IMG/VR virus record: IMGVR_UViG_3300044674_001151
Location: 1 to 24,388 of that record
DNA: 24,388 nt
From: a virus
Lineage: Duplodnaviria > Caudoviricetes
Strand: one strand, 5' to 3'
The position numbers and the translations under genes were made by a program. The notes under the pieces are model-generated. The model ran no database searches and was not told the origin of the DNA. It was given only the letters and a program-made list of their open reading frames with translations. Positions 7,967-24,388 of this stretch are shown piece after piece (position 1 is the first letter of the stretch; every line of letters starts with the position of its first letter).

Positions 7967-8493
7967 TGGTGAAACCTCTACTTTTTGCGGCCGGCACCGC
8001 GGTACAAGTGGCGGGGCAGGTGGCGGCTGCGCGTGCGACGCGCGCTGCGGGCCAGGCGGCTTACGCGACCGCCGAATACAATGCTTCGATTCGCGATCGC
8101 AACGCAGAGGTTGCGCGTAACGAAGCCGCACTGCGCGAGCGCGTCGGTGATCGCGAAATCCGCAACTTCACGAAGCGCTACGGCGATCTGCGGGCGCAGG
8201 CTATTACGCGCTACCGCGCCAGTGGCGTCATCGCTACCACTGGCACACCGCTGCAAGTCCTTCTAAACAGCGACACCGAAGCCGAGGAGGAAAAGCAGAT
8301 GATCGGCCTGGTGGCGCGTACAGAAGCCGGGCGTATCCGCGAGAGTGGCGTCAACGAAGAGCTGGCTGGTCGCCTGACATTGCTCGAAGGCGCACAGCAG
8401 CGACGCGCGGCAGAGACCAAGTCGCGGAGTCAGATGTTCAGTGCGCTGACGACAGCCGCGTTTGGTGCTTACAGGTACAGCCAGATCACATGA
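7966..8493 (+). CDS. internal virion protein (T7 gp14-like)
   Basis: About 175 aa, Ala-rich, hydrophobic N-terminus, A.YNA, A.SGV...GTPL motif; first gene of the ejection block. Start may be GTG 7963. Confidence 0.7.
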   Translation: MVKPLLFAAGTAVQVAGQVAAARATRAAGQAAYATAEYNASIRDRNAEVARNEAALRERVGDREIRNFTKRYGDLRAQAITRYRASGVIATTGTPLQVLLNSDTEAEEEKQMIGLVARTEAGRIRESGVNEELAGRLTLLEGAQQRRAAETKSRSQMFSALTTAAFGAYRYSQIT

Positions 8494-10094
8494 AGATACC
8501 CACTTATACGAGGCAGACAGCCCAGCCTCGACAAGGCGCAGGCACATTCTTGAGTGCCCAACTATCGCCAGCCGCGATGTCGGCGCCTGCGAGAGCTGCA
8601 GCCGAAAGCGCAAATGAGCTGGCTCGTACTGCAGGACAGGTTACCGACCTTATTTACCAAAAGGCGGCGATCGATGCAGAGAGCCGCGCGATCGAGGCGG
8701 CCGCGAATTACGCAACCGAGCTTGAGGAGTTGTCGCAGCGCGCGCTGTTGCAGCCACCAGCGACCGCTGAGAGGACTTTTGAACAGGGGGCTAAGCTAGC
8801 TGCGCAAAAGTCGTCGGTTGGCATGAATAGCCTTGCGCTCCGCGAGTTGCAACGTCGCTTACCAGGCGTGCGCACGCAGTCTGCAATCAACTTCAAGCGC
8901 GCAAACAACCAGCGCTACATCGAGCAAGCGCAGGCCAATGTAACGCTCACGACAGACAGCGCTGTCGACATCGGCTCTAACGTCAGCAACACGCTAATCC
9001 AGCGGCTAGAGTCAATCGCAGCTGCGCGGTTGGAGATCGACAACTCTGCCGATCGGATAGGCGGAGATAAGGCTGCGCTGGCGCACTTAAAGCTCGACGA
9101 AGATCTGGCAACTAACATTGTCGCGAGCGCGATGACGCGCGATGCAAACCCGCTTCGCGTTGCAGAAGCGTTTGCGCGTGGAACTCTCGACGACCCTGTT
9201 CTCCGAAACATTAGCCTGTCGCCTGCGCAGCGCCAGGAGATTGCGAACTCGGCATACGACGAGGCGTCGAAGCTGATTGAAGTGCGCCAAAAGCAGCGCG
9301 CTGATCAAGACAAGGCGGGGCGCGAGGAGCTTAACGCGCTGAACCGCGAGGTTGTAAACGTCGACTTGAACGACCCGGCGGCCGTTGATGCCGCGCGTGA
9401 TACTTACGCCAGGCTTCTTGCCGTTGGGTACTACGAGACGACGGCGGCCCGCGATGCTGTTTACAAGCTGCTGTATCCCGAATCTGAGCCGGTCACGTTT
9501 ACCCCGACTGCCGACTCGATAGCAGAAGAGAACCGGCTGGAAGAGCTTGAGAGCTTGAACCAGCTCACCTACAGCGAGCTTCTTGCAGCGCGCGACCGCG
9601 TATCCCCCGTGTTTTTCGGCCAGATGCTGCAGGCGCTGGAGGGCGACAGGTCTGAAGCCGAAACCGACGCAATCAACCTGTTTCGCGATGCGTTCATGTA
9701 CACGGAGCAGGCAGACGACGGCGGCACACTAAAGGCACCGTCGCGCGCGGCGTTCCGGTCAAGTAGCAGGGAGCTGCGCGCATGGATACGCGACAACCCC
9801 GCGGCGCCATACAGCGCAGTACTGTCGGAAGCAGAGCGCATTGTGAGCGGCAAGCGCGACAAGTTCATCCAGACGATGCAGCAGAACCAGCGCCTCGAGT
9901 TGGCGAGTATGGCGAGTACGCTAGGTCGTTTCCCGCTGCAAATTGAAGGCGAAGGCGCGGCATCGATGGCCGAAATCCGAGGTTATTTAGCTGATCAACT
10001 GGCGCTAGATCAGCCGATTGCTCTCAGAGATCGGTTTCTTCAGATGCTGCGCATAGCAAACGAAGAATATACGTTCGAGGCCTTGCTGCCATGA
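8490..10094 (+). CDS. internal virion protein (gp15-like position)
   Basis: 534 aa, helical, MKIPTY N-terminus; ATGA-coupled to both neighbours; assignment by synteny. Confidence 0.6.
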   Translation: MKIPTYTRQTAQPRQGAGTFLSAQLSPAAMSAPARAAAESANELARTAGQVTDLIYQKAAIDAESRAIEAAANYATELEELSQRALLQPPATAERTFEQGAKLAAQKSSVGMNSLALRELQRRLPGVRTQSAINFKRANNQRYIEQAQANVTLTTDSAVDIGSNVSNTLIQRLESIAAARLEIDNSADRIGGDKAALAHLKLDEDLATNIVASAMTRDANPLRVAEAFARGTLDDPVLRNISLSPAQRQEIANSAYDEASKLIEVRQKQRADQDKAGREELNALNREVVNVDLNDPAAVDAARDTYARLLAVGYYETTAARDAVYKLLYPESEPVTFTPTADSIAEENRLEELESLNQLTYSELLAARDRVSPVFFGQMLQALEGDRSEAETDAINLFRDAFMYTEQADDGGTLKAPSRAAFRSSSRELRAWIRDNPAAPYSAVLSEAERIVSGKRDKFIQTMQQNQRLELASMASTLGRFPLQIEGEGAASMAEIRGYLADQLALDQPIALRDRFLQMLRIANEEYTFEALLP

Positions 10095-12274
10095 GTGATC
10101 TGGACGACATCTTTGAGCAGTACAGAGACGCTGATGCGCTGCGTAGCGTGCCATTTCGCCCTGATCAATTTTCGCAACTGCAAACCGACCTGGACGGCGA
10201 GCAATACGGCATGGTCGGGGAGATTGCCGTCCCCGTCGGGCGTGAGCCGTCGCCGGCTCCCGCCAGCGCGGCGCCTGCGCCGCAGGCCGAAGAAAACAAA
10301 GGCTTCGAGATTGGCGGCGTACCTATCGGCGATATCGAGACGGCGCTCAATGCGCCATTTGCCGGCATTGCTCGCGGTGTCTCGCGGTTCATCGGAAACA
10401 CTGCTGCAGCTTTTGGCCTTGTCGACCAGGCCAAGGTTGATCGGTTCTTTGACGCTGCTGACCGCATTACAACAGACGTCCAACAGGACAACCTTCCCGC
10501 TCAAATCCTTGGCGGCGCGGGTGATATTGTTGGTCAATTTGTTGTACCAGCAAGCGCCGGGATTAAGCTGCTAAAGGCCGCCGGTGCCTCGCCGTTCGTC
10601 GCTAGTCTAGTTAGCGACAGCCTTGTCGGCCTGCTTGGCATGTCGCCTAACGACGAAGCGCTCGCGAATATGATCAGCGAGGATGCCTCGCATCCGGCTG
10701 TTGTCGCTCTTCGAAATCTGATGGCAACGGACCCAGATGATCCGGAGTGGGTCAACCGCTCGCGCAATGCCGCCGAGGCGTTTGCCTTGCTCGGAATGAG
10801 CGAGGCTGTTGTGCGCTCGCTGCCAGAGATCGTGCGGCAGACGAAACAATTCGCGCGGACTGAGTTCGGGCAAGGCCTTGAGCGTCTGTCTGCCGCCGGT
10901 CGCGCAGCTGACGAGCGCATTGCCGAGCTGTCGCGTGGCGGCACGATGATGGCGAACCCGATCGCGGCTGCTGCGGATGTCGTGGTGTCGGGCGCTGGTC
11001 GTGTGGCGGGGGCGCTTAGTCCCAGTATGTCTGAAGTATCGCCGCGGATGGTTAGCGCACGATATCCGACAGCAGTGAAGCGCGCTGAAGACCCAGTTTC
11101 GAGTCAACTAAACATTGGCTACGAAGCGATTGCGGCAGACCCAAAACTATTGCGCAGGAACACAGATATTCTGCGAGCTTACCCTGGTGCTCGTGCGGAC
11201 GCAGCGGTAGACCCAGAGGAGTTTGCTGCACAATTTATTAATGACGCGAAAGAGAACTTGATCTGGCTGCATAATCGAGTGCCAGAAGCAACTCGTATGC
11301 GTTCAAAGCTCTGGTACGATGGTGCCAACAAATTAGCTAAAGAGCTTTCTGGAAAATACGGTATCCCAGATACTGCGGTGGCCGGTGTGATGGCGGCGCT
11401 TTCACCGCAAAAAGACTGGTTTATGAATGTTTCTTTGGCTGAACGAACGCTTGAAGTGTTAGCAAACAAGCAAGGTTTTGCGATTAACGGCGCCATGTTG
11501 GCGCGGATGGAAGAAATTTTTCCAGGCGAGAAGTACGCGGCGTTGCGTGAAGCGATGACGGGGAAGACACTAGGCGAGCTTAAAGACCCAACTGAAAAAG
11601 CGTTTTTCGTTCGCCTCCATGACGAAACATTTGCCGACAGGACTCACCGCATTATTACGCCCGAAGGAAACCGTGGCGACGTTGTCTTGACAGACAAAGG
11701 TTTGCCAAGCGGAACAGGTTGGGGGTCGCTCGTTGAAATATCTAAAGCGGTGAGAGCATTTGAAAGTGAAGGCGACCGTGGCTTGATGACCGAAATTCTC
11801 GGGACAAAGCATAAGGTACGCAGCTTCTACAACAACATTATCGAGCCAAACAGTGCCAACGGGGACGTGACCATCGACACGCACGCCGTTGCGGCAGCAC
11901 TAATGCGGCCCTTGTCTGGTCAGAGCGCGGAGGTTCACCACAATTTTGGCTCAACCCCACTCAAAGTGAAGCAGCCTAAAGGCTGGCAAGCCGCGGCTAA
12001 TTCTTCCAAGACTGGTGTGCAGGGAACGTATGGCCTTTACGCACAAGCGTACCGTGACGCGGCACAAGAGTTGGGCCTTTTGCCGCGCGAATTGCAGTCC
12101 ATAACGTGGGAGGCAATCAGAGGTCTGTTTGATGCGGGCTTCAAAACGCCCAAAAATACCAGTATGGTAGACGATCTATGGCGAAGCCATGCTCAAGGAA
12201 GATTGTCGATCGATGACGTCAGAAAAGCCGTCGAAGACGCCGCAGGAGGAATCGATGCCCCAAGCTGGGAATGA
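10091..12274 (+). CDS. internal virion protein with C-terminal HhH-GPD DNA-glycosylase-like domain
   Basis: 727 aa. The first ~310 aa are Gly/Ala-rich with hydrophobic helices (ejection-protein-like, high GC). The last ~415 aa are lower GC and carry WY, AALSPQ..W..N, K.RSFYNNI, VTIDTHA and PRELQSITW motifs. Confidence 0.65.
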   Translation: MSDLDDIFEQYRDADALRSVPFRPDQFSQLQTDLDGEQYGMVGEIAVPVGREPSPAPASAAPAPQAEENKGFEIGGVPIGDIETALNAPFAGIARGVSRFIGNTAAAFGLVDQAKVDRFFDAADRITTDVQQDNLPAQILGGAGDIVGQFVVPASAGIKLLKAAGASPFVASLVSDSLVGLLGMSPNDEALANMISEDASHPAVVALRNLMATDPDDPEWVNRSRNAAEAFALLGMSEAVVRSLPEIVRQTKQFARTEFGQGLERLSAAGRAADERIAELSRGGTMMANPIAAAADVVVSGAGRVAGALSPSMSEVSPRMVSARYPTAVKRAEDPVSSQLNIGYEAIAADPKLLRRNTDILRAYPGARADAAVDPEEFAAQFINDAKENLIWLHNRVPEATRMRSKLWYDGANKLAKELSGKYGIPDTAVAGVMAALSPQKDWFMNVSLAERTLEVLANKQGFAINGAMLARMEEIFPGEKYAALREAMTGKTLGELKDPTEKAFFVRLHDETFADRTHRIITPEGNRGDVVLTDKGLPSGTGWGSLVEISKAVRAFESEGDRGLMTEILGTKHKVRSFYNNIIEPNSANGDVTIDTHAVAAALMRPLSGQSAEVHHNFGSTPLKVKQPKGWQAAANSSKTGVQGTYGLYAQAYRDAAQELGLLPRELQSITWEAIRGLFDAGFKTPKNTSMVDDLWRSHAQGRLSIDDVRKAVEDAAGGIDAPSWE
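12140..12168 (+). promoter_or_regulatory. possible internal sigma70 promoter for the small acidic ORF
   Basis: TTCAAA-17 bp-TATGGT; each hexamer is 4/6 to consensus, about 85 nt upstream of ATG 12255. Could be chance. Confidence 0.25.
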
Positions 12275-12419
12275 AGACGACGTTGTTATTTTGATGCGCA
12301 AATTAGGCTTGCCTATGGATCGACAGACATACCTAGAGTTGGCCTATTTTGGAGCCGCGCCAGAAGAACTGAGCGCTGAAGAAGAGTCCGAGCTGCCGGG
12401 GATTTTTCAGCAGAACTAG
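12255..12419 (+). CDS. small acidic protein (54 aa), candidate immunity/inhibitor
   Basis: AGGAGGA RBS at 12244-12250, ATG 12255 (in frame with track ORF 12189). MPQAGNEDDVVILMRKLGLPMDRQTYLELAYFGAAPEELSAEEESELPGIFQQN; 11 D/E vs 3 K/R; overlaps the upstream gene by 20 nt. Confidence 0.7.
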   Translation: MPQAGNEDDVVILMRKLGLPMDRQTYLELAYFGAAPEELSAEEESELPGIFQQN

Positions 12420-12441
12420 GCTAACCACAACGAGCTAAACC

Positions 12442-12465
12442 AAGGCGCCCCCGGGCGCCTTTTTT
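12442..12465 (+). terminator. rho-independent terminator
   Basis: AAGGCGCC-CCCG-GGCGCCTT followed by a T run (6 T from 12460). Confidence 0.8.
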
Positions 12466-12479
12466 ATTGGGAAAACCAT

Positions 12480-15400
12480 ATGGCACTACCGGATAGCGCG
12501 ATGGACGCATCGCGCACAGGCGCGCCCTTGCGTCCCGAAGGCGAGGTCCAGGTAGCGAGCGCTGCCGCCGATTTTCTGAAGCTGCTGAACAACCTCAAGC
12601 GCGCGCAGCGCGTGCCGACGCCGATCGAGGAGCGCGCGGCGGGCAAAGGCGCCTACGAAGCGCGACAGCGGGAAGGCGCGCAGCAGCTCTTGAGCCCAGA
12701 GGGCCAGCAGCGCTTTAGCGACGCCAACAATATCGCAAACGAGGCTATCCGACCGGACCCCACCGTTCGCTACGCGGAGGAGGCGCTCAATCAGCAGCCC
12801 GAGCAAGTTGTCGCCGGCGCGCGGGAAGGGCTACGCGGAGTCGACCCAGCGACAATGGAGACTTCGCCGCGGGTCGCCGCTGCGCAACCTGGCGCAACCG
12901 AAATCGATGCGGGCGACGCTATACGACTGACTAGCGAAACGAGAGTCGATGACTTTATTCGCAACGGTAGCGAGGGTGTCGACTTTAATTTCGATCGCAT
13001 CGAAACCGGCGACGACGTCAAGCTACTCGTCAATACGATGAGCGATATCTACGCCAGCCCAATCGAAGCTGCAAAGCGTGGCATCCAGACAAACTTGGAG
13101 ACGACGGCGCGTGCAGACGAGCTGCTCGCTGATGAGCTGGGCCTGACGCGCACGCTGCTGAAACGCAAAACAGGCGAGCTATTGAACGCTGAGCAGATGA
13201 CAGCTGCGCGTGTTGTTCTTGTGCGCTCGGCCGAGCGACTGATCGATTTGGCAACTGCCATCCGCGACGGCGACACGACGGCCGCCACGATGGTCAAGTT
13301 CCGTCGACAGATGGCTATTCACGCCGGGATACAAATGCAGGTGAAGGGCGCGCAGACCGAGATCGCGCGATCGCTGCAAGCAATGCGCATTCCGGCAGCC
13401 GCGCGCACGCTCGAGGACGTCGCCAATTTTCAGGAAATTGTACTGCAAGAGAGCGGCGGCCGAAAAGCCGCTGCCAAGATGGCGCAGGCGGTGCTGAAAG
13501 CGAACGCAACCGGCGGTCGCGCGCAGGTCCATAAAGTTGCGATGAACGGCTGGAAGCGAGCCGAGGGCATTTTCGCAGAGGTGTACGTGAACGGCCTGTT
13601 GAGTTGGCTCCCGACGCACGTCAAGAATTTCGTCGGCACTCCGCTGTTCATGGCTTGGCAGCTCCAAGTAGAGCTGCTGGCTGGCGTCTACGGTGGCATG
13701 GAGCGTGGCATTCGAAGCGCGGTGGGCGCAGGCCGCGACGAGGAAGGTGTTTACGTCGGTCAAGCGGCAGCGCGGGTCATCGGCTACACGCAGGCTGTGC
13801 GAGACGCTTTCGTGACTGCCTCGCGCACAATGGCGACAGAAGACAGCGCGGACGCGCTTAACAAAATCGAAGGCGCCTCTTTCAAGAATATCAGGTCCGA
13901 GTCGAGTGGTCCGTTCGGTCGCTTTTTCAACGCGGTCGGCAAGGTTGTGCGGTTACCAAGCGCTGGCCTGATGGGCGCCGACGACTTCTGGAAGGTTTTT
14001 GCGCAGCGCGGTGAGCTCTACGCGCAGGCCTATGGCGAGGCCCGCCAGGCACTAAGGCTGGGCAAGTCGCAGCAAGAGGCGACCGACAACATGATGATGG
14101 CGATCCTAGATCCGCGCAGCTACGCCGGCGAGCTTGACGAGTTCGCGCGCTATTCGACGCTGACTAGCGACACGGGGTGGCTCGCTAAACTAGGCCGCGG
14201 TATGCAAAGCGTTCCTTTCTTCGGACGCATGTATGTGCCGTTCGTCACCGCGCCTACGAACAGCATCCTGCGGTACTACGAAATGATGGTGCCTAATTCA
14301 GGCGTTTTGAAAGACCCCGTCGCGCGCCAAAAGGCGCTGGCGCGCCTGACAATCGGATGGGGCGCGAGCTACGGCCTCTACAGCATGGCGATCGACGGCC
14401 GCATCACCGGCGCATATCCGCGCGAGCAATCACAGCGTGATTTGCTGCCGCCGGGATGGCAGCCATACAGCTTTGTCTTTCGCGGCGATAACTGGCCGAC
14501 GGATGAAGACGGCGACCCTTTGCCCATATACGACCGCGTGACCGGTGCGCCAAACGGCCCGCTTACATACGTCTCTTACGCCGGCATCGAGCCAGTGGGC
14601 GCGCTGATCGGTATTGCTGCGGAAACCGCTGAGCGGATGCGCCGCACGAACGACCCAGAGGCCCGCCAAAATATCGCCTCCGCAGCGATCGGGGCAGGCC
14701 TCAAATACCTCACTGATCTTCCGATGTTGCAAAGTATGGGTGACATTATGGAAGTGTTAGAGCGTGGGGATCTTAAACAGCTAGCGCGATCTCCGATCGG
14801 CGGCATGATGCCATTTTCATCGGCGGTGCGCGCGGTCGAGCGCTCGATCGATCCGACAATTCGGAAGCCGAGCGGCTCATACGATTACTACACGCTCGAA
14901 GACGTGCAGGAGATGGGCCCAGACGAATCTGGACTGCTCCAAACCGATTTGATCGGCACCGTTAAGGGTGGCGTTATTCCCGGCTTTTTAGACGGCCTGG
15001 CGCAGTACAAGGCGATGCTCACGGAGCGGCCTCTATATGGCGGTGCGTCAGACGAAGAGACTGGCATCCAGTACGACATCTTGGGCCGCGCGCGAGAGAG
15101 CAGCGTTCGCTTTGACGTTAGCCCGGTCCTGGCTTTTTACAATCTCGCGATGCCTTTCGACATATCGGCTGGCGAGGCGCCGGGGCCGGTCGAGCTCGCG
15201 CACATAGAACTTGGCGGCCCGCTCCGCATGAAAAAAGAGAAGAGCGGCGGCTTTCGCTTCACCGAGGCGTTGCAGGCGCAGTGGGTAAACGCTGCAAAAA
15301 ACGAAGTGATGTTGCCAGACGCGCGCGGACAGCTCGTGGATTTCAGAACTGCGATGACGGCTCTCGTGCTTTCGCCGAGCTTCCTGCGCGTCGGGCGCAC

Positions 15401-15569
15401 CGAAACGCCGGAGCAACGGCGCACGCGCCAGCGCAATGCGATGAGAAATCTCGAGGACGAGTATTTCGATGCTGGCCTCGAGCGCACACTCGCGCGGCCC
15501 GAGAACCAAGACGTGTACCTGGCATATCGCGACTACACCAACAACCGAAATCGAGCGCAAGGACAATAA
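12480..15569 (+). CDS. large internal virion protein (T7 gp16-like)
   Basis: 1029 aa, helical; E.YVNGLLS..PTH.KN, L.GADDFWK, PFV.APTN, G.ITG..P, GWQPYS, YVSY...EP.G motifs of podovirus large ejection proteins; lies just before the tail fibre. Confidence 0.75.
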   Translation: MALPDSAMDASRTGAPLRPEGEVQVASAAADFLKLLNNLKRAQRVPTPIEERAAGKGAYEARQREGAQQLLSPEGQQRFSDANNIANEAIRPDPTVRYAEEALNQQPEQVVAGAREGLRGVDPATMETSPRVAAAQPGATEIDAGDAIRLTSETRVDDFIRNGSEGVDFNFDRIETGDDVKLLVNTMSDIYASPIEAAKRGIQTNLETTARADELLADELGLTRTLLKRKTGELLNAEQMTAARVVLVRSAERLIDLATAIRDGDTTAATMVKFRRQMAIHAGIQMQVKGAQTEIARSLQAMRIPAAARTLEDVANFQEIVLQESGGRKAAAKMAQAVLKANATGGRAQVHKVAMNGWKRAEGIFAEVYVNGLLSWLPTHVKNFVGTPLFMAWQLQVELLAGVYGGMERGIRSAVGAGRDEEGVYVGQAAARVIGYTQAVRDAFVTASRTMATEDSADALNKIEGASFKNIRSESSGPFGRFFNAVGKVVRLPSAGLMGADDFWKVFAQRGELYAQAYGEARQALRLGKSQQEATDNMMMAILDPRSYAGELDEFARYSTLTSDTGWLAKLGRGMQSVPFFGRMYVPFVTAPTNSILRYYEMMVPNSGVLKDPVARQKALARLTIGWGASYGLYSMAIDGRITGAYPREQSQRDLLPPGWQPYSFVFRGDNWPTDEDGDPLPIYDRVTGAPNGPLTYVSYAGIEPVGALIGIAAETAERMRRTNDPEARQNIASAAIGAGLKYLTDLPMLQSMGDIMEVLERGDLKQLARSPIGGMMPFSSAVRAVERSIDPTIRKPSGSYDYYTLEDVQEMGPDESGLLQTDLIGTVKGGVIPGFLDGLAQYKAMLTERPLYGGASDEETGIQYDILGRARESSVRFDVSPVLAFYNLAMPFDISAGEAPGPVELAHIELGGPLRMKKEKSGGFRFTEALQAQWVNAAKNEVMLPDARGQLVDFRTAMTALVLSPSFLRVGRTETPEQRRTRQRNAMRNLEDEYFDAGLERTLARPENQDVYLAYRDYTNNRNRAQGQ

Positions 15570-15573
15570 GACG

Positions 15574-18381
15574 ATGACTGTTTCTTCAACGACTACCAAA
15601 GTCAGCTACGCCGGCAACGGCGCGACAACGGTCTTCGCTTACACTTTCAAAATCTTCGCGGCAGCCGACCTCGAAGTCGTGTTGCGCAGCGCAGCCGGCG
15701 TCGAGACAGTGCAAACTATCACGACGCACTATACTGTCAGTGGCGCAGGAGCCGACGCCGGCGGCAACGTAACTTTCGTGACAGCCCCAGCCTCTGGCGT
15801 CACCGTCATCATTCGACGCGCGCTGGCACTGACGCAGGGCACTGACTACGTCGAAAACGATCCGTTCCCGGCGAACTCGCACGAGGACGCGCTCGATCGC
15901 CTCACATTTATTACCCAGCAGATGCAAGAAGAGCTCGATCGCTCGGTCAAAGCATCTGTCACCAATACTATTTCCACCGTCGAGTTCTCGACGAGCGCAG
16001 CTGACCGTGCGAACAAGCTCTTTTCTTTCGACAGCTCTGGCGACCTTCAGATCAGTCAAGAGCTTGGCACGTACCGCGGCAACTGGTCGGCGTCGACGCT
16101 GTACTACCAGCGCGACATCATCAAGGACACCAGCAACAACAACATTTACCTCGCCAACACGCAGCACACGTCGACCGGTGCGCAGCCTATCTCGAGCAAT
16201 GCGGACGTAGCGAAATGGGATCTCATAGTCGATGCGGCGAGCGCGGCGGCCTCTGCTACGAGTGCTAGCGGATTTGCCGACGAGGCCGAGGCGTGGGCGA
16301 AAAAGACTGACGGCGAGGCACAGGTCGGCGAGGGCTACAGCTCGAAGGCCTGGGCGGTCGGCGGGACGGGCGTCACGGACACCGCCGCCGCTGGCGCTGC
16401 GAAAGAGTGGGCAACTGAAACTTCCGGCACAGTCGACACGAGCGACTACTCTGCAAAAGAGTATGCGAGCGGCACGCAATCCGGCGCCGGCGGGAGCGCC
16501 AAAGAATGGGCGCAGCGAGCCGAGGACTCCGCAGTCCCAGGCGGCGGCGGCGAGTATAGCGCGAAGCACTACAGCGCTAAGGCCAGCGCGTCGGCCAGCT
16601 CGGCCAGCACTTCGGCGTCCAACGCGAGTACAAGCGCGTCGGCTGCCAGCACATCGGCGTCAGACGCAAGCACTTCGGCGTCGGCTGCATCGTCCAGCGC
16701 CGCATCGGCGGCGGCCTCATACGATAGCTTCGACGATAGGTATTTGGGCGCTAAGTCCAGCGCTCCGGCGCTCGACAACGACGGCGATGCTCTGATTACC
16801 GGGGCGCTGTACTTCGACACCACCGCTGGCGAGATGAAGGTTTATAACGGCAGCGGTTGGGTCGCGACGGGATCGACGATCAGCTCTGTTTACCAGCGGT
16901 TCGAGTACACCGCGTCCGGCGGCGAGACTTCAGTGACCGGCGCGGACGACAACGCTAACACCCTGGCATATGACGCTGGGTTCATCATGGTGTTTCTCAA
17001 CGGCGTGATGCTCAACGACGGCGATTACACTGCGACGAGCGGATCGTCAATCACCGGGCTGGCGGCGCTGACTGCGGGTGACAAGCTCGAAGTGATCGCC
17101 CACGGTGCGGCTGCACCGGGAGACTATTACACCAAGGCTGCGAGCGATGCGAAGTACGCCCTGCTGGGCGCGAATACAGATATCACGTCTCTGACCCTGG
17201 CCGATGGATCGAGCAGCGCGCCAGCGCTCGCCAACACCGGCGATACCAATACCGGAATCTTTTTCCCCGCAGCTGACACGGTTGGCGTTGCGGTTGGCGG
17301 GACTGAGGTCTGGCGCTTCGGGTCGAACCCGACGACTGCGAAGAACTTAATAATCAACGGCGCGATGACTGTTAGTCAGCGAGGAACCAGCTTTGCAGGT
17401 CTTGGCACAGCAGCAGCATACACACTGGATCGCTGGAAATTAGATATTAACGGCTCACCACAGGCTAGAGTCACAATTACTCAGGACACTGATGTGCCGT
17501 CAGGTCAGGGTTTTGCAAGTTCATTGAAGATTGACGTAACAACCGCAGAAAGTGCCGTTGCTGCCGGTGAGACATTTCATGTTTTTCAAAACATCGAAGC
17601 GCAAAATCTACAGCTTCTTGCCTACAACACCGCATCTGCAAAAACGATGGCGCTGTCTTTCTGGTTCAAATCTCCAAAGAGCGGTACGCATTGCGTAACT
17701 ATCGACAATCAAGATGGCGGTAGCACCTATATTCGTGAGTTTACGGTGGCCTCTGCGGACACTTGGGAAAAACATTCTGTAACTTTTCCCGGCGACACAG
17801 CGGCAGGGATAAATAATGATAATGGTACAGGACTAACGCTTATCTTTCCGCTTATCAATGGTACGACCTATCAAGGCACTGCAAATACATGGACCGGAAG
17901 TGGCACGCAATGGTCTACATCCAACCAGCAGAACCTTCTCGATAACACCGCTAACAACATCTACATCACGGGTGTCCAACTCGAAGTCGGCTCCATCGCC
18001 ACGGACTTTGAGCATGAGCCTTACAGTGTGACGCTTGAGAAGTGTCAGCGGTATTACTGGCGGATACAGGAGTTTTCAACAAATGCGGTTCCTATTGGTG
18101 CAGGGGAAATGGACTCGACGACCCAAGCAAAAATTCACATTGATTACCCTGTTGCAATGCGAAGCAGTACTCCCACCCTACAGGTAAGCAATGTAGCTGA
18201 CTTTAAGATTCAAAGTAATGCTGTAATTGCAAACAGCACAAATGTCACAAGTGACTATTCTGCTAATCCATATAAGCATCAAATAGCTGTAACTCTTTCA
18301 GGCGGCACAGCGGGGCAGGGCGTAACAATGAGAACTGATGGTTCTTCTAATGGGTATATAGGATTTGACGCAGAGCTTTAA
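15574..18381 (+). CDS. tail fibre protein 1 (T7 gp17-like N-terminal anchor)
   Basis: Start moved to ATG 15574 (AAGGA RBS). Y.GNG.TT.F.Y.FKIF...E.ALDRLT...QQ anchor domain, SAKEWA repeats, Ser/Ala heptads, FDDRYLGAK, and a KNLIING.M.V.QRG...TGVQLEVGS.ATDFEH carbohydrate-binding-like domain. Confidence 0.9.
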   Translation: MTVSSTTTKVSYAGNGATTVFAYTFKIFAAADLEVVLRSAAGVETVQTITTHYTVSGAGADAGGNVTFVTAPASGVTVIIRRALALTQGTDYVENDPFPANSHEDALDRLTFITQQMQEELDRSVKASVTNTISTVEFSTSAADRANKLFSFDSSGDLQISQELGTYRGNWSASTLYYQRDIIKDTSNNNIYLANTQHTSTGAQPISSNADVAKWDLIVDAASAAASATSASGFADEAEAWAKKTDGEAQVGEGYSSKAWAVGGTGVTDTAAAGAAKEWATETSGTVDTSDYSAKEYASGTQSGAGGSAKEWAQRAEDSAVPGGGGEYSAKHYSAKASASASSASTSASNASTSASAASTSASDASTSASAASSSAASAAASYDSFDDRYLGAKSSAPALDNDGDALITGALYFDTTAGEMKVYNGSGWVATGSTISSVYQRFEYTASGGETSVTGADDNANTLAYDAGFIMVFLNGVMLNDGDYTATSGSSITGLAALTAGDKLEVIAHGAAAPGDYYTKAASDAKYALLGANTDITSLTLADGSSSAPALANTGDTNTGIFFPAADTVGVAVGGTEVWRFGSNPTTAKNLIINGAMTVSQRGTSFAGLGTAAAYTLDRWKLDINGSPQARVTITQDTDVPSGQGFASSLKIDVTTAESAVAAGETFHVFQNIEAQNLQLLAYNTASAKTMALSFWFKSPKSGTHCVTIDNQDGGSTYIREFTVASADTWEKHSVTFPGDTAAGINNDNGTGLTLIFPLINGTTYQGTANTWTGSGTQWSTSNQQNLLDNTANNIYITGVQLEVGSIATDFEHEPYSVTLEKCQRYYWRIQEFSTNAVPIGAGEMDSTTQAKIHIDYPVAMRSSTPTLQVSNVADFKIQSNAVIANSTNVTSDYSANPYKHQIAVTLSGGTAGQGVTMRTDGSSNGYIGFDAEL
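16283..16719 (+). repeat. coding repeats in tail fibre: six (S/A)xK(E/A/H)(W/Y)-like units then Ser/Ala heptads
   Basis: AEAWA, SKAWA, AKEWA, AKEYA, AKEWA, AKHYS; then SASNAST SASAAST SASDAST SASAASS (21-nt period). Confidence 0.75.
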
Positions 18382-18399
18382 CAGCAGGAATTATGAACA

Positions 18400-18735
18400 A
18401 TGCTAGAAAGCATTAAATACGCAAACGCAGGGCACACTGTAGTTTCCGCAACAGAAAACGGTAGTCAGCTTTCTATTCCAGTTGCTGTTGGCAACCGTCA
18501 CTACGATGAGATCGTGGCGCAGGGTCTAGCTATTGCTGACTATGTACCTCCTGCTCTGACTTGGGCGGACGTCCGCAGCGAGCGCGACGGTCTGCTTGCG
18601 GCGACAGACTGGTGGGCAGTTTCAGATCGCGCGATGTCTGCGGACGAAACAAATTATCGGCAGGCGCTGCGCGATGTTCCGCAAAATTTTGCAAGTCCAG
18701 CCGATGTGGTCTGGCCGACCAAGCCAGGAGCTTAA
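18400..18735 (+). CDS. tail fibre assembly chaperone 1
   Basis: C-terminal R.ERD.LL..TDW...YRQALRD.P....WP.KP signature (phage tail assembly chaperone domain); follows fibre 1. Confidence 0.85.
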   Translation: MLESIKYANAGHTVVSATENGSQLSIPVAVGNRHYDEIVAQGLAIADYVPPALTWADVRSERDGLLAATDWWAVSDRAMSADETNYRQALRDVPQNFASPADVVWPTKPGA

Positions 18736-18737
18736 CC

Positions 18738-20960
18738 ATGACAATCAATCGTGATCTAGCAGACCTCGCCCAGTCCCTTACCGGGGGCATCACGACGCTC
18801 AGCGAATTAGTCACCGCAGCGACTTCCGGCATCGTCGAGACCAACGCATTCATTGATGCGTGTCTCGTCGGCCCTTCAGTAGATGGCAAGGCGTGGTCAG
18901 GTAAGTTTGAGAACGGATCAGTTTGGTCAAGCCTGATGCTTGCGACCGTCGAGACAAGCGGCGCAAATGCCGAAGTCAACATCTGGGATTTGACGGCTGG
19001 TACGCTTGCGAGCGCATCGCCGCTCGCGACTGTCACCTTGACCGGCGCAACGCCGACAAGCATTGCCGCAAGCATGGGCTATGTGATCGTCGGGACCAGC
19101 GACCAAGGCTTTCACATTGTTGACCCGCATGGTGGGTCGTGGGCCGAGCGTACCGATGGTTGGCCGCGCTCGCTTTCATCTACTACAACACCCGGCCTGA
19201 CCAATGACAATGTGCAGTTTGTTTGTGCGGGCTTGGCTCAACAACCGCCGTTTGACCCGCGCACTGGTGGTCCGATGCCTTCTTTTGGTGTTTCTTATGG
19301 GGCCGGTGCTGACGGGTATTCTCTAGTCAAGCATGACGGCAACGTATGGGATCGTTCTGAAACGGTAACGAGTGGGGCTCCAATTAGCATATCTGGCGGC
19401 CACTTTTTTGCAGTTAGAGAATCCGTTTCAGATATTATTTATAAATCCCTCACACCGATAGACGAAATCACAGCGGACGATTGGAGTAGGTCAAACGTAA
19501 GCGGGGGCAACTATAATCAACCAGTCCAAGCAGACACATCGCTTGATATTATAAAAAGGTTTGCGGTCGGGGCGGATGCTGACGGTCTTTCTTTGGCCTA
19601 TGGTTTCCCCTTTTATGGTTCTCTAGGGACGGACGACTCTATTTGGGCAAATATCACAACCACCTATAACACTGGTTATAACAGCCAAGGATCGGTTCTT
19701 ACTGCTTTTGCGAACAGCGCGACGGCTGATAGGTCTGGAGGAGCCAACACGCTAACCGCTGGCGGCACCACCACAGAGATTACGCCGTACACTGGCGCAG
19801 AGATTAAGGCATACCGAATCTCTGCTGGGGCGACGAACAACACCCCGACCGGCGATGCCGACTTTGAAATGGGCACCGGGTCGTTTTCTGGCTGTCTTTG
19901 GGTTTACGCCGAAGCTGGTGCGGATAGCGTCGCGATTATGCAATATCGCAATGCCTCGACCGGCGCGGTCCCGCAATGGGGCATAAACACATCAACCACC
20001 GATTTACAGGCGGGTGTGAATGATGGCTCAAATTCTGCTACGGCAACGTGGACCGGTGGGCACACCTTTATTGCGGACGGAAATCCACACCTTGTCGGGT
20101 TTAGCTTCAACGGCACATCCAAGACGGTCACGCTTTTCGTTGACGGCAATGAGGTTGCGAGTGCAACGAACGCCAGCATTGGCAGCGTATCTGGCGGGGC
20201 TTCGTTTGCATGTGGTATCGGCGCGTCCCCAGAGGGCGGCAACGAGTTTGACAACACAAACAACTGGTTGTCGCTTGCGCGGATAACGAAGGGCTCCGAG
20301 ATTACCGGCGATCAATTCAAGAAGATGTACGAAGCCGAGGTCGGCATTTTTGCTGATAATGCGAAGTGCCTCCTGCAAGGCGCGAGCGACGCTGTTCTCG
20401 ACGCCCGAATCGATCCGCTGACCGGCAAGTACATCGTCACTCAGTCCGACACTCAAGACATTTTTGACGGGCTTGCAATCGATACCGAGCGCACCATCGC
20501 GGCTGGCGGCACCACGTTCGAACACGGTTTGTTGTGGGGCGATGGTGTTGCCGAGATCAACGACGCGAACCTCTATGCGTCGATGCCCGCAACCAATCAA
20601 CGGCAAGTCAACGAGATGGTCCGTTCAATGGCGGCTGATATGCCGAGGGGTGTCGATCTGAGTAAGGCTAAGGCGTGGGTATATTTTAACACAGGAACGC
20701 CGATTATAAATGCGACGTACAACGTCGAGTCCGTTACGTCGGGGGGCGCGGGGCTGGGGACTATCACATGGGCAGTCCCTTTCAAGTCAGCTAAATATGT
20801 GGTCGTGACGGGAGCCAATGACGCAAGTCAGGCGCTCGATGTCAGTGCTTACGTCACGGCCCAATCTACGACCGCAATCACCGTCGTCAGGACAGAAGAT
20901 AGCGCCGACGTCAACGGAGATATTTACGTGGCTTGTTTTGGAGAACTAGAAAATGAATAA
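18738..20960 (+). CDS. second tail fibre / receptor-binding protein with LamG (ConA-like) domain
   Basis: Start moved to ATG 18738 (CAGGAG RBS); MTINRDLADLA N-terminus; FS...WVY...ADG..HLVG......LFVDG.EV LamG-like segment; AKAWV.FN.....YNV.SV C-terminal tip domain. Confidence 0.75.
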   Translation: MTINRDLADLAQSLTGGITTLSELVTAATSGIVETNAFIDACLVGPSVDGKAWSGKFENGSVWSSLMLATVETSGANAEVNIWDLTAGTLASASPLATVTLTGATPTSIAASMGYVIVGTSDQGFHIVDPHGGSWAERTDGWPRSLSSTTTPGLTNDNVQFVCAGLAQQPPFDPRTGGPMPSFGVSYGAGADGYSLVKHDGNVWDRSETVTSGAPISISGGHFFAVRESVSDIIYKSLTPIDEITADDWSRSNVSGGNYNQPVQADTSLDIIKRFAVGADADGLSLAYGFPFYGSLGTDDSIWANITTTYNTGYNSQGSVLTAFANSATADRSGGANTLTAGGTTTEITPYTGAEIKAYRISAGATNNTPTGDADFEMGTGSFSGCLWVYAEAGADSVAIMQYRNASTGAVPQWGINTSTTDLQAGVNDGSNSATATWTGGHTFIADGNPHLVGFSFNGTSKTVTLFVDGNEVASATNASIGSVSGGASFACGIGASPEGGNEFDNTNNWLSLARITKGSEITGDQFKKMYEAEVGIFADNAKCLLQGASDAVLDARIDPLTGKYIVTQSDTQDIFDGLAIDTERTIAAGGTTFEHGLLWGDGVAEINDANLYASMPATNQRQVNEMVRSMAADMPRGVDLSKAKAWVYFNTGTPIINATYNVESVTSGGAGLGTITWAVPFKSAKYVVVTGANDASQALDVSAYVTAQSTTAITVVRTEDSADVNGDIYVACFGELENE

Positions 20961-21369
20961 TCGCATCGTCACCGCAGAGGGCGCGGTCATCCACTCCCTC
21001 AATCCATCGGCCACTATTGCCAAGCTGATGGAAGCTAAGGCAACGCCAGCCACGTATGACGATGACGGCGCTGTGCTGACGCCAAAGAGTTACCCAGACG
21101 CAGCCACAGTCTACGAAGAAGTAGACATTGATGAGGTTGATCTACGCACACACAGGTGGCTTGCCGCTCGCTACGACAGCGAACAATGGGCTGCGCTGAG
21201 AGCAGAGCGTGATCGGCTGCTGGCTGAGACTGATTGGGTTGTCGTGAAAGCGCAAGAAGCTGGCGAAGCAGTGCCTGCCGCTTGGCAAGCCTACCGCACC
21301 GCGCTGCGCGACTTGCCTGCCAACACTACCGATCCCGCCAGCCCAGTCTGGCCGACGAAGCCTGCGTGA
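20953..21369 (+). CDS. tail fibre assembly chaperone 2
   Basis: LRAERDRLLAETDW...W.AYRTALRDLP...PVWPTKP; paralogous C-terminal domain to 18400..18735. Confidence 0.85.
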   Translation: MNNRIVTAEGAVIHSLNPSATIAKLMEAKATPATYDDDGAVLTPKSYPDAATVYEEVDIDEVDLRTHRWLAARYDSEQWAALRAERDRLLAETDWVVVKAQEAGEAVPAAWQAYRTALRDLPANTTDPASPVWPTKPA

Positions 21370-23437: not shown

Positions 23438-23860
23438 ATGACCAACCAGATCACAAAAACCATCGCCAAGACCATCAAGGACGCCGGGGTCGATCCCGAC
23501 GCATTCCTCGGCTGGGTCGCTAACGACTGGAACGAAAGTTGTCTGCAGGGGCTGCTGACCGCCGACGACCATGAGGGTGCCCACTACGAGCATGCCGCTG
23601 ATCACATCAATAGCGGGTTTGAGCTTGACGAGTTGATCCAGCAGTACAGGGCCGCGAACCCGACCTCAGAGCAGCGCGCCCTTGATGCGCTGGAGGACGC
23701 AATAGGCGATGAGGTCTTGCGCGAAATGGCAATCAGGGAACAGCCTGACCAACCACTCTGCAAGGGCTGCGAGTGGCCCGTTGATGACGCAGAGTTTGAC
23801 TACTGCGACGAATGTTTGGGCATCACCGCTCCCGAGCGGGTGACAGGGGGTGCAGCATGA
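23438..23860 (+). CDS. acidic hypothetical protein with C-terminal CxxC-x11-CxxC Zn ribbon
   Basis: 140 aa, strong RBS; CKGC...CDEC; about 30 D/E vs 9 K/R by hand count; ATGA-coupled to the integrase. Confidence 0.75.
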   Translation: MTNQITKTIAKTIKDAGVDPDAFLGWVANDWNESCLQGLLTADDHEGAHYEHAADHINSGFELDELIQQYRAANPTSEQRALDALEDAIGDEVLREMAIREQPDQPLCKGCEWPVDDAEFDYCDECLGITAPERVTGGAA

Positions 23861-24388
23861 TCAGTAAACGAGGCCCACTCTATTACGTCGACGCCCGGCG
23901 TTTCGCCGGGAAGCAGCGCAAATTCGAGACGCGCGCTGAAGCCCAAGCCTACCTGGAGCACCACCGCGCGGCGCACTGGGCGGGCTCGGTGTACCTGGAC
24001 CCCGCGCAAAGCCTGCGCGTTGAGGAGGCGATCGAGAACTACCTCAAGCGCGAGGAGAAGCGCGCACGCGCAGAACATCTGGCCGCTACGTATGTCCAGA
24101 GCAAAGCCGTCGCGCTGCGGCAGGTCGCCGCTCTTGGCAGCCCGTCTTTTGGCGCCCGGCGCGTGGGCGAGTTGCGGAAATCCAACCTCGCAGATTTACT
24201 GGAGCTCTTACAGGCATCATGCAGGTCGCACTCCACGCTGAAAAAGAAGTGGGTGAACGTCGGACAGTTCTTCGAGTGGCTGGTCGAGACGGACCAGATC
24301 GAGACCAACCCTGCGCGCGTGCGGCTGCCGCGCCGGACAGACGAGCCCCATGAGGCACTTCGCATCTCGCGCGAGCAGATCGCCGCGA
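23857..24388 (+). CDS. int: tyrosine integrase, N-terminal part (3' truncated; not in the ORF track)
   Basis: Open to the window end: MISKRGPLYYVDARRFAGKQRKFETRAEAQAYL (arm-binding-like) ... STLKKKWVNVGQFFEWLVETDQIETNPARVRLP (core-binding domain ending in NP). Adjacent to attP. Catalytic residues lie outside the window. Confidence 0.82.
   Translation, partial: MISKRGPLYYVDARRFAGKQRKFETRAEAQAYLEHHRAAHWAGSVYLDPAQSLRVEEAIENYLKREEKRARAEHLAATYVQSKAVALRQVAALGSPSFGARRVGELRKSNLADLLELLQASCRSHSTLKKKWVNVGQFFEWLVETDQIETNPARVRLPRRTDEPHEALRISREQIAA

Follow-up and report, generated by a model that had tools for sequence, protein, structure and literature searches.

Why would a gene for an internal protein of a phage particle end in an enzyme-like domain, and why would a very small gene overlap its end? 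The question is raised by a window of 24,388 nucleotides (nt), the whole stretch of DNA analysed here (IMG/VR virus record IMGVR_UViG_3300044674_001151, positions 1 to 24,388), in which an open reading frame (ORF) of 727 amino acids (aa) occupies 10091-12274 on the plus strand. An original prediction made from the DNA letters had proposed that this protein carries a DNA-glycosylase-like domain behind an ejection-protein-like N-terminus, enters the cell with the phage genome and is paired with an inhibitor encoded by the small gene. The 727-aa ORF was confirmed in the sequence, and the acidic 54-aa overlapping ORF with its AGGAGG motif and the terminator behind it were all present as described. 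We refer to the N-terminal part as the carrier, to the C-terminal domain as the cargo and to the 54-aa product as the partner. Comparative evidence argues strongly for a real and new system, probably of the toxin/immunity type, that resembles MuF toxins and the cargo of phage polyvalent proteins.

Comparison with related phages revealed that homologous N-termini bear different C-terminal domains, as had been suggested. These cargo types were named A (the window), B (P0003), C (P0004), D (P0007/9) and E (P0008). Among 14 carrier matches, members that were 88-94% identical bore unrelated-looking C-termini. When the window was compared with locus L001, which contains type D, the two were 97/93% identical up to 10998 and 98% identical from 12419, with 10999-12418 unmatched, and comparison with L095 (type C) gave a homology gap at 11002-12454. 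The window and L097 shared 97% identity limited to 10895-12535, while L097 and L098 had flanks of 95-98% identity and different cargos. Another clade repeated this exchange, with N-termini up to 98.7% identical bearing either an A or a B cargo.

Two short blocks lie at these breakpoints. The left block, a 105-nt hub (10895..10999, plus strand, aa 269-303), was common to different carriers and cargos and nearly invariant in alignments A1/A2; BLAST breakpoints fell at 10894/10895 and 10998/11002, and contigs from other samples had loose ends at 10895 and at 10998. The right block (12419..12535, plus strand) consists of the intrinsic terminator and the first ~55 nt of the next gene; homology restarts there at 12419 (L001) or 12454 (L095) and stops at 12535 (L097), and loose contig ends in other samples were located at 12419, 12439 and 12490. 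The terminator hairpin (12442-12461) is followed by a T-tail. A terminator scan yielded 10 sites compared to 5.7±2.4 in shuffles, which is weak by itself, yet the block was conserved in relatives. As the breakpoints coincide with the hub and with the terminator/next-start block, we consider these two blocks to be the crossover sites. From these data we conclude that nt ~11000-12420, bounded by the two short blocks of homology, are swapped as one piece, and that at least five cargo types occupy the slot. The cassette contained no mobility genes.

Base composition changed within the gene. The hand counts of the original prediction were exact (0.683 GC in 10921-10980 and 0.467 in 11281-11340), and the values for GC and for GC at third codon positions were 0.61/0.63 in the carrier and 0.52/0.52 in the C-terminal domain, with a GC of 0.50 in the partner and 0.59-0.62 in the neighbouring genes. 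The compositional switch therefore exists as proposed, although the break in DNA homology places it at 10998-11002 and not at ~11020.

Exchange was also apparent in environmental samples. Three of four other samples (X7, X9 and X10) contained type A contigs at lower depth together with type-D ends at 12419 in the same run, and type-D starts at 10998 were found in X9 and X10; types A and D coexist in each of these three seawater samples. The fourth sample, X12, had the cassette on another carrier. Classification of 150 carrier representatives gave 24 with types A-E, 25 that end right after the carrier (some of them fragments), 52 in which the N-terminus is fused to a homologue of the downstream 1029-aa gene product, and 49 with other cargos. 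The latter included 6 ART-PolyVal domains (below cut-off), 4 DUF7178, 3 LPD38 and 1 PBECR3, and the slot of L003 contained LPD3. The presence of ART-PolyVal, LPD3, PBECR3 and LPD38 indicates that the slot is not reserved for glycosylases. Type E had 0 relatives in the viral scan. A metagenome scan yielded at least four loci.

The partner gene of the window, partner A (12255..12419, plus strand; net charge −8), lies in the +1 frame and overlaps the 727-aa ORF by 20 nt, with its Shine-Dalgarno (SD) sequence AGGAGG (12244..12249, plus strand) inside the last codons of the enzyme gene. A start at 12189, which would give a 76-aa product, was rejected because an SD sequence was absent and the start in relatives corresponds to 12255 or lies 10 codons before it. 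Partner A had no Pfam match, and the ESM Atlas returned one viral cluster at 0.79, below the useful level. A homologue was present at the end of the domain in 79 of 80 viral loci, the single miss being cut by a contig end, a frequency well above what chance would give, and all 79 had an ATG start at the equivalent place, mostly with an SD-like purine run upstream. Each of types A-D had its own partner family (~50-65 aa, overlapping in the +1 frame), which was found in 81/82, 71/78, 5/5 and 15/16 loci of types A, B, C and D, respectively, all misses being truncated and cross hits being absent. When only distinct intact viral loci were counted, every cargo was linked to its cognate partner (A 65/65, B 57/57, C 5/5, D 9/9; 136/136 overall) and none was cross-paired. 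Some of the counted loci had also served as seeds for the partner profiles (63, 37, 3 and 3 seeds). Among the type-B seeds was a stray piece of the following gene, to which double partner matches in L126 and L129 could be traced. There was one partner per locus within the 5-8 kb flanks, and no orphan toxin/immunity arrays were seen there. Neither the empty allele, L002, in which the carrier N-terminus stands alone (282 aa), nor the fused alleles contained a partner match.

The partner was also found outside this group of phages. A partner-A profile built from the viral loci alone matched in 21 of 46 distant genome-contig loci, in every case beside the end of the domain, and after iteration and the addition of three annotated phages partner A was found in 26 of 49 distant type-A loci. 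An in-frame fusion as the cause of the partner similarity was rejected, as the partner is in another frame. In four genome contigs (L200, L213, L215 and L223) and in L243 (OP947163.1), partner-A genes are overprinted in the +1 frame inside polyvalent genes of 2000-3300 aa; the overprinted ORF was missing from the annotation of the one annotated record examined.

In 63 of 79 viral loci the partner gene is fully nested in the enzyme reading frame, such that selection in the two frames can be compared. Variability at the three codon positions of the partner frame was 0.11/0.09/0.28 among 30 distinct nested copies, and identity was 73% in the partner frame versus 55% in the enzyme-tail frame. This third-position wobble indicates that the partner gene is real and that selection acts on its own reading frame. 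Enzyme and partner identities were correlated (Spearman 0.85); the correlation reflects shared ancestry and was not used as evidence for co-evolution.

The type A cargo (11042..12274, plus strand) corresponds to DUF7178 (PF23802; Pfam E 2e-28), which was the sole Pfam match in the 727-aa protein. Types A and E and further cargos scored over the DUF7178 cut-off, and types B, C and D fell below it or had no match. The AlphaFold2 (AF2) model of the type-A domain had a predicted local distance difference test (pLDDT) score of 95. When this model was compared with 48,161 chains, all 20 rows with Z≥5 were helix-hairpin-helix (HhH) fold enzymes, and the next unrelated row had a Z of 4.4. The best fold match (VIA) was Ogg2 (3n0u; Z 8.9, root-mean-square deviation 4.0, 190 aligned residues), followed by QNG1 (Z 8.3-8.5), EndoIII and AGOG. 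Foldseek against PDB gave no row with E≤0.001 for type A, with AGOG in fifth place at E 0.14. The model of type D (pLDDT 93.5) had Ogg2 in its top 7 rows, with a template modelling score of 0.72 to the target and an E of 7e-3. Types A and D barely align by profile, yet both models match Ogg2. Searches by sequence were negative: two profiles run against PDB sequences returned no glycosylase (5 spurious rows and 0 rows), and PADLOC 2023 matched 0 of 9 proteins.

Residue conservation was consistent with the modelled fold. K575, F579, D596, H598 and Q669 were invariant in 111 and in 41 sequences, and W673 was invariant in the 111 and at least 90% conserved in the 41; a K..F..D-x-[HWI] pattern was present in nine cargo representatives. 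The corresponding residues described for OGG1 are K249/C253/D268/H270/Q315/F319 (PMC3397491), and those given for Dag1 are K118/D132/D184/W188 (bioRxiv 10.1101/2025.10.29.685425). The type-A residues parallel both sites, equivalence being based on spacing and conservation, and this spacing suggests a guanine-type base as the substrate. We predict that types A and D adopt an Ogg2/HhH fold with a guanine-type pocket in which Q669-x3-W673 would correspond to OGG1 Q315/F319 and Dag1 D184/W188; the models and the invariant K575 and D596 thus support the DNA-glycosylase-like domain that had been proposed. The window genome had no match to the Ogg2 family PF22175 (a control matched 3/14), and the type-A protein ends in a conserved Trp motif, not in Lys. 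The C-terminal lysine of the Ogg2 family is described as the 8-oxoguanine sensor in PMC3397491. As both the PF22175 match and this lysine are absent, type A is not a member of the Ogg2 family.

The complex of enzyme and partner, the prediction of which had been suggested as a check, was modelled for type A. The type-A domain with partner A scored 0.92, compared to 0.00 for the best of three controls. Among solved pairs 116 of 157 attained the mark applied to this score, as did 2 of 215 mismatched pairs; for the alignments used here these counts are only rough. The runs agreed in at least 93% of contacts, the pLDDT of the partner was at least 84, and the predicted interface included K575, D596, T597, K573, P439 and Q440. 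Since no sequence relative was found in PDB, recall of a like complex by the predictor is unlikely. Partner A is therefore predicted to be an active-site-blocking inhibitor that covers K575/D596 and the neighbouring surface.

The window has a podovirus gene order in profile scans (portal, capsid, tail tubes, internal virion genes, tail fibres, holin, lysozyme and an integrase-like ORF) and a GC of ~59%, and its capsid protein is 63-69% identical to those of HTVC010P-type pelagiphages; on this sequence evidence the phage is an HTVC010P-type podovirus. The carrier (aa 1-268; 10091..10894, plus strand) sits between the tail-tube and tail-fibre genes and is distantly homologous (24-34%) to the front of gp16-like ejection proteins, also called internal virion protein D, in agreement with the ejection-protein-like N-terminus of the original prediction. 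Upstream, a 534-aa gene of the internal-virion block (8490..10094, plus strand) has a stop that overlaps the carrier start, and this arrangement is syntenic with L001, L002, L016, L030 and L098. The 1029-aa neighbour downstream (12480..15569, plus strand) matched proteins annotated as internal virion protein (D) in cultured phages by tblastn at 23-28% identity. In P0015, L004, L007 and L013 the carrier N-terminus and a homologue of this neighbour form one chain. These chains indicate that the 727-aa gene arose as the front part split off from a gp16-like ejection protein and has a cargo slot, and by its sequence the 1029-aa neighbour is the C-terminal part of the ancestral fused protein. No transmembrane segment was evident in the carrier (best 19-residue hydropathy 1.46). 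By virtue of its homology to gp16-like and internal virion D proteins, the carrier is likely to be packaged and injected with the genome.

How might the cassette act? We consider it moderately probable that it encodes an injected toxin and its inhibitor, i.e. a swappable glycosylase/AP-lyase (apurinic/apyrimidinic lyase) unit on an internal-virion gene whose substrate is present in the host cell. Enzyme and partner would both be made late and would be translationally coupled, and in the producing cell the partner would prevent the folded enzyme from acting on the DNA of host and progeny. By way of the carrier the enzyme would enter the capsid and, upon infection, a cell without the matching inhibitor. 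There it would excise a guanine-type base from resident DNA, whether that of a competing phage or the chromosome of the host, and nick this DNA. A cell in which a phage with this cassette type is already present would be protected, and several types could thereby be kept in one population. An integrase was found in only 4 of 35 near-complete carrier genomes, which argues that lysogen protection, as in the MuF model, is not the general reason for the partner and that protection of the producing cell is more likely. The window phage itself may be temperate, as it contains an integrase-like ORF (23812-24387; phrog_1, E 6e-16) that runs off the end.

Several observations weigh against this reading. 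The viral loci are mutually related and the profile seeds overlap the counted loci, so that the linkage counts are not independent events. The co-occurrence of cargo and small ORF that held for types A-D did not extend to type E, where a partner was found in 0/3 loci (L098, CRP-212 and CRP-3) despite intact-looking motifs, nor to all distant type-A loci: 23 of 49 lacked a partner-A match, of which 9 had another +1-frame ORF and 14 had no clear candidate. The enzyme motifs of these 14 are mostly intact, and the cultured phage CRP-738 is among them. These partner-less copies imply that the enzyme is not always self-toxic or is otherwise controlled; type E may act on a substrate absent from the producing cell. 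In addition, the scores for the fold are no more than middling (Z 8.9; Foldseek E>0.001 for the type A and the type D model alike). In profile comparisons type A is linked strongly to E alone (hhalign probability 95%), its links to B, C and D being weak (0.07-2%). Finally, an enzyme that attacks ordinary guanine should also strike the incoming genome, for whose protection by 7-deazaguanine none of the 35 carrier genomes encodes QueC or FolE.

The last difficulty would vanish if the enzyme, like Dag1/Dag2, cut only DNA containing 7-deazaguanine or another modified guanine, in competing phages or in the host, with types differing in the base recognized and the partner restraining residual or off-target activity while the genes are expressed late. 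This explanation, which we regard as rather unlikely, draws its main support from the carrier genomes: QueC and FolE were each found in 0 of 35 (other modification genes, including DpdA, were not searched for), so that the phage's own DNA would be spared. The same counts led us to drop self-protection by 7-deazaguanine synthesis. The best fold matches include QNG1 (Z 8.3-8.5, a tie for first place), whose substrate is a 7-deazaguanine nucleotide, and type E would need no partner. Moreover, Dag1 is described as an HhH glycosylase that degrades only modified phage DNA (10.1101/2025.10.29.685425). The main counter-evidence is the near-obligate partner of types A-D in viral loci, as a producing cell without the substrate would make an inhibitor that covers the active site superfluous; the accessible text on Dag describes no inhibitor, and PADLOC gave no match. 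Whichever of these two substrates applies, we hold with considerable confidence that the cassette encodes a conflict enzyme with a cognate inhibitor.

Other explanations dispense with attack on resident DNA. An injected 8-oxoguanine glycosylase could mend the phage's own genome after damage by sunlight or reactive oxygen species, the partner being a folding chaperone or activity switch; the closest solved folds (Ogg2, AGOG and OGG1) and the spacing of the guanine-pocket residues agree with such a role. Self-repair nevertheless gives no reason for the rapid swapping of at least five barely alignable types with non-cross-reacting partners, nor for the conflict domains ART-PolyVal, LPD3 and PBECR3 in the same slot, and with the Ogg2 lysine sensor absent and PF22175 unmatched we find it quite improbable. 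If the substrate were in RNA or a free nucleotide, for instance a signalling nucleotide or the queuosine of tRNA, the incoming DNA would be spared and an inhibitor would still be required in the producing cell, allowing the effector to stop translation or disarm a defence signal. QNG1/DUF2419 gave the longest alignment (225-233 residues), but the Lys-x20-Asp-x-His and Gln-x3-Trp motifs fit DNA-acting OGG enzymes and 18 of the top 20 fold rows act on DNA, making such a substrate very improbable. It is scarcely credible that the cassette is a selfish addiction module, spreading by recombination and neither packaged nor useful after infection. Recent horizontal transfer (97% identity between otherwise distant phages) and the existence of an empty allele would suit it, whereas the domain is always fused in frame in virion-module or polyvalent proteins wherever the N-terminal side is covered, the cassette is devoid of mobility genes and 31 of 35 carriers are without integrase.

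Returning to the injected toxin, we compared the system with known ones. MuF polymorphic toxins are described, in the text available of PMC5576092 and PMC3482391, as having a carrier associated with the phage head, a variable C-terminal enzyme and a small downstream presumed immunity ORF, with delivery together with phage DNA proposed and occurrence exclusive to temperate phages. The window system shares the virion carrier, the variable enzyme and the small downstream ORF, but its carrier is a gp16-like ejection protein without a MuF Pfam match, its relatives are mostly integrase-free, its cargo has a predicted HhH glycosylase fold (the word 'glycosylase' is absent from the main text of PMC5576092) and its partners are overprinted in the +1 frame. 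With polymorphic toxin systems in general it shares a conserved N-terminal delivery part, recombining C-termini and, for types A-D, a cognate small gene, although orphan cassette arrays are absent within the 5-8 kb flanks. The polymorphic layout first proposed therefore stands as regards variable C-termini with their own small ORFs, whereas the lysogen-immunity logic of MuF is not directly transferable to carriers that are mostly lytic.

Phage polyvalent proteins are large virion proteins with early-acting enzymes, according to the part of PMC5512222 consulted. The type-A domain family co-occurs with LPD23, ART-PolyVal, RadC and GGDEF, and the carrier slot also accepts polyvalent-type domains; the window copy, however, has a single cargo domain, and the 727-aa protein had no Pfam peptidase match (no dedicated MPTase profile was used). 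The word 'glycosylase' does not occur in the main text of PMC5512222, and no glycosylase cargo or cognate inhibitor was found in the parts of PMC5512222 and PMC7824862 compared. With Ogg2/AGOG/OGG1 and QNG1 the window domain shares the predicted fold, the catalytic Lys and Asp and the Gln-x3-Trp pocket, but it is about twice the size of Ogg2 with insertions, is 6-13% identical, lacks the C-terminal lysine sensor, is linked to the virion and is paired with a predicted inhibitor. Compared by description rather than by sequence, Dag1/Dag2 are likewise HhH glycosylases used as weapons, with Lys, Asp and a stacking Trp and many divergent families; they are stand-alone bacterial defence genes in the available text of 10.1101/2025.10.29.685425, whereas a phage encodes the window enzyme, which forms part of a virion protein and is paired with a predicted inhibitor. 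The cargo slot is not discussed in the part of the HTVC010P-type paper covered (PMC8477408). The name DUF7178 (PF23802; phrog_3842) was not found in the literature, Pfam gives its function as unknown, and no title describing this system was found in a search that left subscription papers outside.

Further variation was noted around the cassette. Nine distant type-A loci (L214, L217, L220, L224, L226, L227, L228, L234 and L237) have other ATG-started +1-frame ORFs of 60-93 aa at the partner position, possibly representing further inhibitor families for type A. In the type E locus L098 (3695-4900) the partner and the terminator are both absent. A second variable slot is located in the Pro/Ala linker of the carrier (10218-10267), where L001/P0007 have an insert of ~185 aa and contigs from X7, X9 and X10 diverge at 10218. 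The cultured SAR11 phage HTVC028P (gp34; L245:6944-9808), P0140 and P0141 have another cargo of ~600 aa with an EE[IM]QSD motif in the same slot as the window, which had no Pfam match in P0140. Type B cargo contains an extra conserved C-terminal domain (P0003 aa ~730-1000) without a Pfam match, and the tails of P0142/P0149 are similar by eye. The Roseobacter phages CRP-738 (L242; gp40, type A), CRP-212 (L246; gp38, type E) and CRP-3 (L247; gp36, type E) have the same enzyme domains at another carrier position, in large proteins whose genes lie between those for portal and capsid. A type C-like cargo occurs in the cultured Limnohabitans phage DC33. The idea of a restriction glycosylase was dropped when no 4- or 5-mer was found to be strongly avoided in one type alone (49 A and 46 B loci). 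GGACC/GGTCC was strongly avoided in both type A and type B loci (L018-L094 and L116-L195; observed/expected 0.11-0.15, compared to 0.79 in the window), probably because of host restriction. Elsewhere in the window (15469-21369), two long tail-fibre-like genes are each followed by a tail-assembly chaperone gene (PF16778).

Known from the MuF heads of temperate phages, polymorphic toxin/immunity logic would be extended by this system to ejection proteins in HTVC010P-like podoviruses, a mostly lytic group described as extremely abundant in the ocean. It would also add HhH-fold glycosylases to the enzyme classes of toxins, among which we did not find them named in the parts of the literature compared. 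DUF7178 gains a testable role; the 410-aa domain and its 54-aa partner can be tested directly in Escherichia coli. With the partners, a DNA-repair fold acquires small candidate inhibitors from four families, a logic for which Ugi is the precedent, and giant polyvalent genes of phages hide overprinted partner genes. On a broader view that we put forward tentatively and with some doubt, abundant, mostly lytic aquatic podoviruses would use polymorphic toxins built on their ejection machinery, fighting each other and their hosts by injecting HhH glycosylases of mutually non-immune types. If this is true, the cassettes would confer kin discrimination among co-infecting lytic phages, and their partners, active-site plugs of ~55 aa that are often concealed in the +1 frame of giant polyvalent genes, would add four families to the protein inhibitors of HhH glycosylases, all of them new.

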